Below are positions 38,008 to 39,916 of a stretch of 47,013 bases of DNA, one piece after another. The notes under the pieces are model-generated. The model was not told the origin of the DNA. It saw only the letters and a program-made list of their open reading frames with translations, and searched no databases. The stretch is from a virus (Duplodnaviria; Heunggongvirae; Uroviricota; Caudoviricetes), in IMG/VR virus record IMGVR_UViG_2541047907_000003; one strand, written 5' to 3'. The position numbers and the translations under genes are program-made. The stretch's first letter is position 1. Each line of letters starts with the position of its first letter.

Positions 38008-38088
38008 GATCTCTCCATCGTCGCTGGCAGCCTGTTCGTAAAGGTTTGAACCGCCCCGGGTTTCCTGGAGAGTGTTTTATCTGTGAAC

Positions 38089-38979
38089 TCAGGCTGCCAG
38101 ATCATCGTTTCCGATGGAAGCATAATAAGCTTTTTCTGCTTCTGCCGGAGGAGTATGGCCCAGCCTTTCCAGCAATCGTCGATTGTTATACCAGTCCACC
38201 CACGTGAGTGTGGCCAGTTCCACTTCTGCACGGTTTTTCCAGCTCTTACGGTGTATTACCTCCGCTTTGTAAAGACCATTGATGCTCTCCGCCATCGCGT
38301 TGTCATACGAGTCGCCTGTACTTCCTGTTGATGCCAGTAATCCGGCTTCCTTAAGCCGCTGTGTGTAGGCCAGCGATACATACTGAGAACCTTTATCACT
38401 GTGATGGACCGTGCCGGACGGTCGACGGGCCCATAACGCCTGCTCCAGTGCATCCAGCACGAATGTCGTTTCCATGGACGATGAGACCCGCCACCCCACG
38501 ATGTATCCGGCAAACACATCAATGATGAACGCCACATAGACGAAGCCCCGCCATGTGCTGACGTAAGTAAAATCAGCCACCCACAGCTGGTCAGGTCGTT
38601 CTGCCACGAACTGACGGTTTACGCGGTCGCCTGCGGCAACGGCTTTCCGGCTGATGGTCGTACGGACCTTTTTACCCCGGAGAACACCGGCAAGTCCCAT
38701 AACCGCCATGAGACGTGCCACAGTGCATCTGGCCACTCTGATACCTTCCCGTAACAACTGACGCCAGACTTTACGCACACCGTATACCTTGTGATTTTCA
38801 TCGTATACGCGCTGTATCTCTTTCTTCAGCCAGTCATCGCGCTGCGCACGGGCACTGCGTTTATCCGGATGATGTCGCTGTTGCTGACAGTGGTAATACG
38901 TTGACGGGGCAATATGCAGTTCGCTGCATAGCGGTCCGACCCCGTACTGCTCACGCAGCTTATCCAGCAGTGGCATCAT
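38089..38979 (-). CDS. IS3-family transposase OrfB (DDE catalytic domain)
   Basis: 296-aa [34 protein letters not shown]...; starts in -1 frame overlapping the orfA end at an A6 tract. Confidence 0.85.
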
Positions 38980-39302
38980 TTTTTCCAGAGGCGGTCGAAC
39001 TCCGCCTTCGCAAAATAAGCGGAAGCCTGGCGAAGGATATCGTTACTGCGGCGCAGTTCACGATTTTCACGTTCCAGCTCTTTCAGACGCTGACGTTCAG
39101 CGGTGGTGAGCCCTCCATCACCGCCCCCGGTATCCCGCTCATGCTGGCGAACCCAGACACGCAGAGTCTCCGGCGTACAGCCAATCTTTGGAGCAATGGA
39201 ACAAATTGTCGCCCATTGTGAGTCATATTCGCTCTGACTTTCCAGAACCATACGGACTGCCCGTTGACGGACTTCGGGGGAAAAACGAGTATTTTTAGTC
39301 AT
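38976..39302 (-). CDS. IS3-family transposase OrfA (HTH, leucine zipper)
   Basis: 108-aa [60 protein letters not shown]. Confidence 0.85.
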
Positions 39303-39356
39303 CCTGTTTACCTCTTTCTCAGGAAGTTTAGTCTCCAGGATTCCCGGGGCGGTTCA

Positions 39357-39916
39357 GTGTTTTTATTCTCTGTAGTAATCTCTGTTGTATTCTCTGTAAG
39401 ATCATCAGGCCATTTTGACCCGATGACATTGGGTCGTTTTGAACCAATGGAGCGTTTCATTTTGACCTCTTCCATCGTGTCATTTTGACCTGATGGAGCG
39501 GCGCATTTTGAACCGATGGATTCGTTCAATTTGCCACCATCTAAAAGCTCGCTCCCATAGTTGATCGTGTAGAAATTGGTCATATCGCGCTTTGATTTAT
39601 TGAGCTTTTCACAACGCAAAAGCCCCAGCGTTTTCAGACTTGCAAACGCGCGCTTTAACGTTGACTCTGACCAGAATGGGAACTGTTCCAGCCATTGTTC
39701 CGTTGTGTTGTAAATCCAGCGAACACCATCACATTCCATGCCGGAATTGGTATCTCTCAACCAGTAATGCAACTGCTGCAACACAATGGCTTCATTTAAG
39801 CCAATCTTCATCGCAAGCTGTGTGTTTATAACCAGTGGGCGTTCAGCAAAAAGAAGGCTCATAATTCCATCCAGCTTTTTGTTGGTATTGCAGTCGATAC
39901 GCAAGTTTGAAAGCAA
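39357..39916 (-). pseudogene. replication initiator (lambda O-like replisome organiser), 3' end interrupted by the IS629-like element
   Basis: ORF 39308..39916 has N-terminal MSLLFAERPLVINTQLAMKIGLNEAIVLQQLHYWL..., but its last 16 codons lie inside the IS terminal repeat; iteron array lies inside the ORF. Confidence 0.7.
39411..39540. repeat. iteron array of the phage replication origin (about six repeats, 23-24 bp period) followed by an AT-rich tract
   Basis: CATTTTGACC / CGTTTTGAAC / CATTTTGAAC units starting near 39411, 39435, 39458, 39481, 39504 and a degenerate copy at 39528; AT-rich 39357-39410. Confidence 0.75.

Follow-up and report, generated by a model that had tools for sequence, protein, structure and literature searches.

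IS629 is found preferentially in prophages, often without a target-site duplication or beside deletions (PMC3271280, PMC4587872, PMC9943667). In four O157 genomes, matching duplications flank 21 of the 47 IS629 sites (PMC3271280), and PMC9943667, citing Kusumoto 2011, puts deletions beside the element at a few nt to >40 kb. In phage lambda, the replication origin consists of four 18-bp iterons and a 38-bp AT tract (PMC3349717). The lambdoid phage mEp460, to which the DNA analysed here is related, is one of 26 sequenced phages for which both a lytic and a lysogenic cycle in E. coli are stated to be confirmed (PMC9836094).

The whole stretch of DNA under analysis, 47,013 nucleotides long and hereafter called the window, contains an IS629 copy directly beside an iteron origin. 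We consider, with a probability of about 0.9, that IS629 entered the initiator gene of a Qin/mEp460-type lambdoid prophage and that 154 bp were lost during the insertion or after it; the gene is a single-gene replication module, and initiation would be abolished.

The IS629 copy and the interrupted initiator gene

The element at 38047-39356 (minus strand) is a complete IS629 copy of 1310 bp; it belongs to the IS1203 isoform group of the IS3 family and points the same way as the phage early-right operon. The sequence TGAACCGCCCCGGG is present in two exact copies in the window, at 38047-38060 (+) and 39343-39356 (-), where 0.02 would be expected by chance. The inverted repeats are 25 nt long, their arms being complementary at 23 of 25 positions, and the ends read TGAACC...GGTTCA, that is, a 5'-TG start and a CA-3' end. 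Both orfA and orfB are intact, with an A-run at their overlap (Table 1). Nucleotide identity to IS629/IS1203 copies is 99.5-100%: the copy in LC567824.1, annotated as 'IS3 family IS629', matches at 99.5% over all 1310 bp, and the copy in AF017626.1 is 100% identical. The ends, the reading frames, the ALIL pseudoknot and these identities all agree with the first-pass annotation, which had described an IS629-like, 1310-bp element of the IS3 family with terminal repeats. Known IS629 (isoforms IS1203 and IS3411; Shigella sonnei, E. coli O157:H7) has the same length, repeats, orfA/orfB -1 frameshift and ALIL, and the copy in the window shows no differences in the element itself; what is particular is the insertion site.

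The flanks read ...AAAGGTT-IS-GTGTTTTT, and a direct repeat of 3 bp (GTT and GTG) or 4 bp (GGTT and GTGT) is absent from the IS ends, as the first reading of GTT against GTG had already suggested. The empty site is present in three related phage genomes, mEp460, HannyBb and PhiR42_1 (L001-L003), which were compared with the window by blastn and MAFFT. In these phages the intact initiator gene has 966 bp and encodes 321 aa. Exactly 154 bp of it are missing at the IS (gene nt 507-660, about codons 169-220), and the unmatched 154 bp of the relatives, at 3861-4014 of the mEp460 record L002, fall precisely at the element; PhiR42_1 is otherwise collinear with the window, with ~98% identity over 30 kb. 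The missing target-site duplication is explained by this loss. An alignment with intact relatives had been proposed at the outset, and it located the empty site and the missing segment within one gene, so that the IS-adjacent deletion then suspected is now defined, against three intact phage genomes, as 154 bp inside the initiator. The pattern that would have indicated a simple insertion, a perfect repeat with the gene resuming in frame beyond the IS, was not found: there is no repeat, and 154 leaves a remainder of 1 when divided by 3. Even a precise excision of the IS would therefore leave a frameshifted gene without 51 conserved codons. Among the lost codons are 20 or more that encode residues invariant across 21 homologues of 70-98% identity. 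As read from these alignments, the locus is an IS insertion with a small adjacent deletion, both inside the initiator gene.

What remains of the gene lies on both sides of the element, the two parts being out of frame with each other. The 5' part is predicted to encode an N-terminal winged-helix domain and a linker, the linker being encoded by the origin. Its start is most likely the ATG at 39862, as the relatives are annotated, and this replaces the TTG at 39916 implied by the first-pass annotation. The 16 codons over which the initiator frame had been said to run into the terminal repeat are one hybrid codon and 15 IS codons, followed by TAA. Truncation of an O-like initiator by the IS at the origin had been correctly recognised as well, and beyond the IS the gene resumes at 37741-38046. 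This 3' remnant includes an 88-aa ORF (37741-38007) and a DnaT-like C-terminal tail, and its stop is positioned as in the intact genes. The 'short ORFs' that had been listed downstream do exist; they are in fact the C-terminal remnant of the initiator (37741-38007/38046) and an intact DUF977 gene. For annotation, the lesson is that a short ORF past an IS may be the displaced end of an interrupted gene.

The cis elements of the origin are untouched by the IS. The iteron cores, CATTTTGA[A/C]C, lie at 39411, 39435, 39458, 39481 and 39504 (span 39411-39513) with a spacing of 23-24 nt, and all five, together with the AT-rich tract, fall within the initiator reading frame. The tract is the GC minimum of the intact initiator gene (27.5% over 40 nt). 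It occupies 39357-39402 and abuts IRL, which places the IS directly beside the AT-rich tract that follows the iterons, where it had been put at first sight.

Table 1. Features of the interrupted replication module and its surroundings (window coordinates)
Feature	Position	Strand	Basis or remark
DUF977/Ren-like gene, intact	37278..37700	-	PF06163, E 9e-29; phrog_142; synteny
Initiator 3' remnant, codons 221-321 and native stop (101 codons)	37741..38046	-	92.6-94.3% identity over left flank
Junctions bounding the 154-bp loss	38046/38047 (left), 39356/39357 (right)	.	blastn, MAFFT
IRR, distal to orfA	38047..38071	.	25-nt arm
IS629 orfB, 296 aa, DDE integrase core	38089..38979	-	PF00665 rve, E 8e-28, and HTH_21
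ALIL pseudoknot and A-run (GGAAAAAATGA), programmed -1 frameshift site	38905..39021	-	Rfam RF01497, 120 bits against gathering score 50
IS629 orfA, 108 aa	38976..39302	-	PF01527 HTH_Tnp_1, E 7e-13
IS-encoded tail of truncated fusion ORF	39308..39356	-	stop codon 5 nt upstream of orfA ATG
IRL, upstream of orfA; now adjoins origin AT-rich tract	39332..39356	.	
AT-rich tract, retained intact	39357..39402	.	46 nt right of IS, 30% GC, three 12-nt tandem units
Initiator 5' part, gene nt 1-506, codons 1-168 and 2 nt	39357..39862	-	97.8-99.4% identity to HannyBb, mEp460, PhiR42_1 genes
Iteron array	39403..39534	.	five clear copies and a possible degenerate sixth
YdaT/cII-like gene upstream of initiator; end overlaps initiator start	39843..40364	-	PF06254; phrog_163
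cro-like gene	40348..40578	-	PF14549 P22_Cro
pR-like promoter before cro-like gene	40633-40606		promoter scan

Distribution of the allele and routes to the deletion

Of 5,426 complete E. coli genomes, 1,779 carry the uninterrupted 154 bp in one piece with 100-bp flanks. In the same 5,426 genomes the junction gave no record, whether searched with a 2.2-kb query or with a 240-bp junction query; 23 full-coverage records among complete genomes carry IS629 at other places in the module. The fusion ORF was found in the source assembly GCA_000460595.1 only, where 10.5 kb match the window at 100% identity; the right junction recurs in one ENA metagenome contig, with 4 mismatches in 5.6 kb. The source assembly, of the 2013 era, is at scaffold level, with independent support for the right junction only, and collapsed or mis-joined repeats in a short-read scaffold might have produced the junctions or the 154-bp loss. 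The draft assembly L021 indeed shows an apparent IS-free loss of 154 bp in the same gene (gene nt 352-505), which is really an NN scaffold gap over the iterons and was rejected as a parallel allele. Nevertheless, an artefact is highly improbable here, given that the window is free of N, that both flanks come from one gene and are collinear, that the independent metagenome contig has the same right junction, and that a mis-join normally would not leave two exact IS ends in one gene at a distance of 154 bp.

IS629 would have transposed into the segment of the initiator gene just 3' of the gene-internal origin, and the 154 bp beside it would have been lost during transposition or afterwards. The most economical route would be a simple insertion at one junction, after which the transposase acted intramolecularly from the opposite IS end. 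A precursor allele, with the IS and a duplication at this site and no deletion, was sought and not found, so we infer the order of events and the deleted side. In the same module of the relatives there are four fully bounded IS629 copies, one with a duplication (CCAG) and three without, and two of these three adjoin large deletions.

A possible, if tentative, version of this route has the element inserted at the left junction (target GTT) beside repeat-like phage sequence, whereupon IRL, either joined through a spacer to the pseudo-IR or alone, would have attacked a target 154 bp away; attack on the same molecule would delete the intervening DNA and one copy of the duplication. The segment that was lost starts, in intact relatives, with CAC-GATCCGCCCC, and GATCCGCCCC matches the IR core GAACCGCCCC at 9 of 10 positions, in the orientation of the IS left end and 3 nt from the breakpoint. 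Such sites number three in the 48.7-kb PhiR42_1 genome, which corresponds to a post hoc probability of ~1e-3. It also speaks for this version that IS911, another member of the IS3 family, reportedly inserts beside IR-like sequences, and that abutted IR junctions are highly reactive. However, the IR-like coincidence was spotted after the fact, and no intermediate allele was found. The alternative that two same-orientation IS629 copies, 154 bp apart, underwent homologous recombination, with removal of one copy and the intervening DNA, seems to us rather unlikely: although recombination is the classic explanation of an IS without duplication, and IS629 strikes this module repeatedly in other strains, it requires two independent insertions within 154 bp, and neither a single insertion nor both were found among the 5,426 complete genomes. 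Two further ideas were discarded. An IR-like sequence is not a general IS629 target in the module, as none is present at the two other breakpoints compared with intact sequence (L004, L011), which also speaks against the tentative version above. Microhomology between the IS end and the IR-like phage sequence, as the cause of the deletion, would predict GGTTCACGA...CCGCCCCGGG at the junction, where the window has GGTT/TGAACC.

The replication module and the fate of the prophage

The first-pass annotation had gone further and proposed that an IS-mediated deletion or rearrangement took away not only the end of the initiator but also a P or helicase-loader analogue. One part of this stands, in that nothing resembling a P, DnaC or DnaB gene can be recognised downstream in the window; it is also true that IS629 elsewhere in this prophage family does adjoin multi-kb deletions. 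The other part, loss of the partner through the IS, was rejected by alignment to intact relatives and is now scarcely credible: in these relatives the two flanks align to a single gene, 154 bp from each other, the window retains the last 101 initiator codons and the DUF977 gene in collinear order, and the intact phages and prophages of the family are entirely without a P analogue. In mEp460, HannyBb, PhiR42_1 and four inspected E. coli prophages, an intact 321-aa initiator is directly followed by the DUF977/Ren-like gene, and the early-right operon of each is free of P-, DnaC- and DnaB-like genes; the AT-rich NTPase occupies a variable cargo slot downstream. Judged by this gene order, the initiator family is a single-gene replication module without a P-type helicase loader, so that nothing else is missing from it. 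The O-P pair of lambda is the wrong template for this mEp460/Qin-type family, and the absent P-like gene is therefore no evidence of deletion.

In the interrupted gene, the N-terminal winged-helix domain would bind the iterons, and the C-terminal helical domain with its DnaT-like tail would recruit host replication proteins; separation of the two would abolish initiation, and the induced prophage could then replicate only if a co-resident phage with matching iteron specificity supplied the initiator in trans. That it cannot replicate on its own is a reasonable inference from the sequence. The prophage is otherwise nearly complete (98% collinear with PhiR42_1), and the lesion marks it as one in which DNA replication after induction probably fails; the nearly isogenic intact phage pins the IS lesion to the base. 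The event is ordinary prophage decay.

A transcript from the pR-like promoter would run through the truncated initiator into the IS and, given that the truncated ORF ends 5 nt before the start of orfA, early-right transcription would read into the transposase gene. It could be speculated, with little expectation of being right, that on derepression the 168 native residues and the 15-residue IS tail, together with the iteron array, titrate or block mEp460/Qin-type initiators in an origin-specific superinfection interference, and that early-right transcription couples IS629 activity to induction. That the truncated N-terminal fragment and/or the iteron array have been kept for interference with incoming phages of the same origin is likewise improbable. 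In its favour, the lesion spares the iterons, the AT tract, the promoter-proximal genes and the DNA-binding half of the initiator, and rep-lambda phages are blocked by resident lambda ori iterons when these are carried with oop on plasmids (PMC3349717). Nevertheless, the lambda block depended on multicopy plasmids and oop RNA, no fragment would be made before derepression, and the allele occurs in one strain and one metagenome contig only, and thus shows no sign of spread or selection.

The initiator family and its relation to known systems

The more interesting biology lies beside the lesion, in a single-gene initiator family that ends in a DnaT-like tail. The uninterrupted central segment of the initiator gene is found in ~1/3 of complete E. 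coli genomes, yet the protein lacks a model in Pfam and NCBIfam and goes by the annotation 'hypothetical protein'. The protein matches phrog_391, 'replication initiation O-like', over its full length (E 1e-92); among Pfam and NCBIfam families none was matched at E <= 0.01 and none relevant at E <= 10, Phage_rep_O included. An AF2 model predicts an N-terminal winged-helix domain at residues 14-100, a disordered stretch at 108-174, a helical C-terminal domain at 183-295 and a tail, with a mean pLDDT of 55, and the domain roles given above rest on the PHROG profile, the genomic context and this low-confidence model. The best Foldseek matches to the modelled N-terminal domain are the N-terminal domains of the plasmid Rep proteins 4pql, 5kbj and 4pt7, which are weak matches (E ~0.01, TM 0.5-0.6 on target) and which we take to be of the staphylococcal RepA_N type, such as pSK41 RepA. 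In Reps of the RepA_N type, the N-terminal domain is a winged helix, the iterons lie within the rep gene and the C-terminal domain engages replication proteins of the host. At the sequence level no relationship of the initiator to plasmid Rep proteins was detected, and a profile of 21 initiator homologues gave nothing at E <= 1 against PDB sequences.

The resemblance to DnaT is confined to the end of the protein. Positions 37744-37806 of the window encode VQRCVNHISEPDTEIPPGFRG, which matches DnaT residues 159-179 (2ru8, 6aep, 9zbt_D) with E = 0.002-0.005; the alignment covers no more than the last 21 residues, and homology to the N- and C-terminal domains of DnaT was not found. The extreme C-terminal motif of DnaT, ...SEPD..IPPGFRG, is present in the initiator remnant, and of the 21 aligned homologues 20 retain IP.GFRG, some of them with different linkers. 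On the function of the DnaT C-terminal tail, a search of a 2026 preprimosome paper (PMC13377028) gave nothing informative.

Among IS629 insertions, those in O157 prophages (Ooka et al. 2009; Kusumoto et al. 2011) are comparable in that a prophage gene is likewise hit, with adjacent loss and no duplication. Events attributed to the IS-excision enhancer (IEE) accompany excision of the IS, as described in PMC9943667, whereas the IS in the window is retained. The closest described origin, that of lambda O, also lies inside the initiator gene, with iterons and then an AT tract between the N-terminal DNA-binding and the C-terminal parts, in a gene that likewise follows a cII-like gene; here there are five iterons and a 46-nt tract. 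In contrast to lambda O, the initiator of the window has no Phage_rep_O Pfam match and no following P gene, and its C-terminus has a DnaT-like tail in place of the P-binding domain. DopC (Brezellec et al. 2017, PMC5509034) similarly joins an O-like N-terminal part to a DnaT C-terminal motif. However, DopC is chromosomal and domesticated, is paired with the P-like dopE and is without iterons, whereas the initiator described here stands without a P-like neighbour, is phage-borne and carries its own iterons.

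The IS629 copy at the origin

The 14-mer TGAACCGCCCCGGG is found at exactly two sites in the 47-kb window, 38047-38060 (+) and 39343-39356 (-), against a chance expectation of 0.02 occurrences. These sites enclose a 1310-bp element with 25-nt ends complementary at 23/25 positions. The element is an intact IS629 (synonym IS1203), because its full-length identity to the LC567824.1 copy, annotated 'IS3 family IS629', is 99.5%, and its identity to the AF017626.1 copy is 100%. Its flanks read AAAGGTT-IS-GTGTTTTT and are therefore without a direct repeat of 3 bp or 4 bp; none was found on reading both junctions. 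On the right of the element, the repeat-bearing open frame of the O-like initiator gene enters the IS and continues there for one hybrid codon and 15 more. The first-pass annotation had described, at 38047-39916, IS629 ends next to an AT tract and iterons (origin repeats), with a frame that runs into the IS. All these elements were recovered, and the IS629 identity, the truncation and the missing target-site duplication were confirmed.

The truncated initiator ORF ends with a TAA 5 nt ahead of the IS629 orfA ATG (window 39300-39310, -), and IS629 has the same orientation as the early-right operon, with a pR-like promoter at 40633-40606. Given this spacing and co-orientation, pR-like transcription would enter the transposase gene upon induction. 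The window also carries an ISNCY-family element, present with ~98% identity in phage PhiR42_1, where its transposase is annotated as two ORFs. The Rfam matches to sok, DicF, the two cspA leaders and IS009 are typical of Qin-type prophages.

Features of the window and of related loci
Feature	Coordinates	Strand	Details
IS009 sRNA	132-330	-	Rfam
cspA thermoregulator leaders (n=2)	25042-25427, 27935-28327	-	Rfam
Second mobile element, ISNCY-family transposase	33786-35126	-	446 aa; NF033594, E 4e-139
sok antitoxin RNA	35205-35371	-	Rfam
AT-rich NTPase	35475-36962	-	495 aa; P-loop ATPase, Sll1717 family, NF047389, E 4e-74
DUF977 gene, intact	37278-37700		gene order in window as in relatives
IS629 orfB	38089-38979	-	296 aa; PF00665 rve; overlaps orfA at A-run
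ALIL frameshift pseudoknot	38905-39021	-	Rfam, 120 bits
IS629 orfA	38976-39302	-	108 aa; PF01527
AT-rich tract, right of IS	39357-39402		46 nt, 30% GC, three 12-nt tandem units
Iterons (n=5)	39411-39513		core CATTTTGA[A/C]C, spacing 23-24 nt
DicF sRNA	42207-42258	+	Rfam
Intact initiator copy, mEp460	L002 3555-4520		
IS629 in relatives	L004 4118-5427, L005 690-1999, L010 2501-3809, L011 3519-4828		

The empty site and the route to the deletion

Both IS flanks are matched by three deposited phage genomes, HannyBb (PP925841), mEp460_ev081 (LR597641) and PhiR42_1 (PV340562), in which the position falls inside a 966-bp gene (321 aa) labelled 'replication initiation O-like protein', 'DNA replication protein O' or 'Primosomal protein I'. 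Pairwise blastn and MAFFT alignment against these phages were used to map the empty site. In mEp460 (locus L002), the left flank aligns up to L002:3860 and the right flank from L002:4015, and the 154 bp between them (CACGATCC...GGACGAAAA) are present in 3/3 phages and missing from the window. The adjacent deletion that had been suspected could thus be located, together with the empty site, by alignment to intact relatives. The lost stretch corresponds to nt 507-660 of the gene, about codons 169-220. The annotated ATG start lies at window 39862; since the gene stop maps to 37741, the 'short ORF' 37741-38007 is the C-terminal end of the initiator in its native frame. Of the gene, the 5' part lies at 39357-39862, and 101 codons remain at 37741-38046. 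Removing the IS precisely would still leave the gene unrestored, as 154 is not divisible by three.

In 1,779 of 5,426 complete E. coli genomes, the 154 bp and 100 bp on either side form one contiguous mid-gene segment of 354 bp, indicating that the uninterrupted form is the norm and the window allele is derived. Neither IS junction was found in the complete RefSeq E. coli genomes searched. The 184-aa truncated fusion protein is recorded on two contigs. Scaffold KE701865.1 (GCA_000460595.1) matches window 34308-44862 with 100% identity; an ENA metagenome contig, with 4 mismatches over 5.6 kb, terminates 53 nt into the IS and therefore supports the right junction only. A 2.2-kb query was covered by 23 records, each in three pieces because IS629 occupies another position in this module.

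The allele is consistent with a right-junction insertion (target GTG) after which 157 bp were lost on its left, and equally consistent with a left-junction insertion (target GTT) after which 157 bp were lost on its right. Recombination of two IS629 copies separated by 154 bp would lead to an identical product, but requires two insertions within one short interval. As read in the intact phages, the segment missing from the window starts with CAC-GATCCGCCCC, a 9/10 match to the core GAACCGCCCC of the terminal inverted repeat (IR), placed in IS-end orientation 3 nt from the breakpoint (L002 3861-3874; window 38046/38047). This speaks for the left junction being the original joint made by the transposase; there, the left IR beside a pseudo-IR would look like a reactive IR-IR junction. 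Loot et al. are said to have reported in 2002 that IS911, another IS3-family member, inserts beside IR-like sequences. Only 3 such sites occur in the 48.7-kb PhiR42_1 genome, equal to the chance expectation, and the post hoc probability of one so near the breakpoint is about 1e-3. Thus, GATCCGCCCC may be an IR-like target of the transposase, but the IS629 junctions of L004 and L011, read against the intact sequence, have no IR-like sequence, and for this reason the IR-like target is treated as a lead. The junction sequence rules out that the real IR and the pseudo-IR were simply joined by a microhomology deletion.

Lesions in related prophages and the probable consequence in the window

Small structural variation in O157 prophages is driven mainly by IS629 (PMC4587872), in four O157 genomes only 21 of the 47 copies of the element have matching duplications (PMC3271280), and IS629-adjacent deletions extend from a few nt to >40 kb (PMC9943667). 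The same immunity/replication module in other E. coli strains harbours independent IS629 copies, with a duplication in one of the four that are fully bounded: CCAG in L010 (ECCHD184), and none in L004, L005 and L011. In L004 and L011 (strains CE10 and MMC-J-0105), IS629 stands beside multi-kb deletions from the YdaT gene to the exonuclease gene. Moreover, the 88-aa C-terminal ORF is called as its own gene in 44 blocks of an assembly collection, and in many other assemblies (loci L012-L021) the initiator gene is split without any IS. The lesions read in 7 of these loci were deletions of 1 nt, an insertion of 8 nt, an in-frame stop, and iteron-array changes of 46 or 70 bp; with an iteron period of 23-24 nt, the latter shift the frame. 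An eighth case, a 154-bp 'deletion' in L021, proved to be an NN gap. Part of the split-gene lesions may be sequencing or assembly errors. The window event is a known lesion type, caused by a known element, in one strain.

By the AlphaFold model of the initiator, the C-terminal domain has lost its beginning to the IS and the deletion (helix 183-189, two strands and half of helix 206-230), and the lost part holds >20 residues invariant across 21 homologues. The putative DNA-binding half is also uncoupled from the remaining protein. The cis elements of the origin (iterons and AT tract) are unbroken in the window. We strongly infer that the prophage is unable to initiate its own replication. An initiator with matching specificity, provided in trans, could still drive it.

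Absence of a P gene and the initiator family

The gene order cro, YdaT/cII-like, initiator (966 bp), DUF977/Ren-like is found in mEp460, HannyBb, PhiR42_1 and each of four E. coli prophages that were examined, and their annotated early regions contain no P-, DnaC- or DnaB-like gene. A study of 26 focus phages, with mEp460 among those sequenced, states that lytic and lysogenic cycles in E. coli were confirmed (PMC9836094); the deposited HannyBb record is a complete phage genome, obtained from an environmental sample, and gives E. coli as the host. Because the window and its intact relatives have an identical gene order without P, the absence of a P analogue is ancestral to this phage family and not caused by the IS. 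Taken together, the first-pass annotation stands as regards the element, the truncation, the absent duplication and the adjacent deletion, but not as regards a lost P/helicase-loader partner, which intact relatives lack too; the 'short ORFs' noted in its place are the initiator C-terminus and the DUF977 gene. The AT-rich NTPase, which also matches phrog_13260 and faintly a PADLOC model (PDC-M28C, E 4e-5), lies in a cassette (35300-37300) of 33-36% GC, and its slot in PhiR42_1 is occupied by a methyltransferase and small ORFs. It is variable-region cargo, probably a moron or defence-type gene, and not a substitute for a replication gene.

The initiator has no match in Pfam or NCBIfam. It matches PHROG 391 'replication initiation O-like' over its full length (E 1e-92), and in its C-terminal half there are further matches, to PHROGs named 'DnaD-like helicase loader' and 'replisome organizer'. 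The AlphaFold model, built from 21 homologues, has a mean pLDDT of only 55 and is therefore good for architecture only: a winged-helix N-terminal domain (residues 14-100), a helical C-terminal domain (183-295) and a disordered tail. It is precisely residues 108-174, the stretch that the iterons and the AT tract encode, that are modelled as disordered. The top PDB Foldseek matches (4pql, 5kbj and 4pt7) are N-terminal domains of plasmid replication initiators (Rep), and are weak (E about 0.01). The last 21 residues, VQRCVNHISEPDTEIPPGFRG (window 37744-37806, -), match the very C-terminal end of DnaT, the E. coli primosomal protein I (residues 159-179 in 2ru8, 6aep and 9zbt_D; E 0.002-0.005), and the IP.GFRG end is present in 20 of 21 aligned homologues, some with different preceding linkers. 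The N-terminal domain would bind the iterons, and the C-terminal domain and tail would tap host replication or primosome proteins directly, which would explain a dispensable P. The DnaT-like tail could thus be a short host-mimicking motif that accounts for P-less replication.

This single-gene initiator family with a DnaT-like tail may merit attention of its own. Protein clusters matching it at E <= 0.001 number 4,271, and the 321-aa family is named 'hypothetical protein' in RefSeq; a third of the complete E. coli genomes carry its uninterrupted gene segment, yet no curated Pfam or NCBIfam model exists. The same combination, an O-like protein bearing a DnaT motif at its C-terminus, was described earlier as DopC (PMC5509034).
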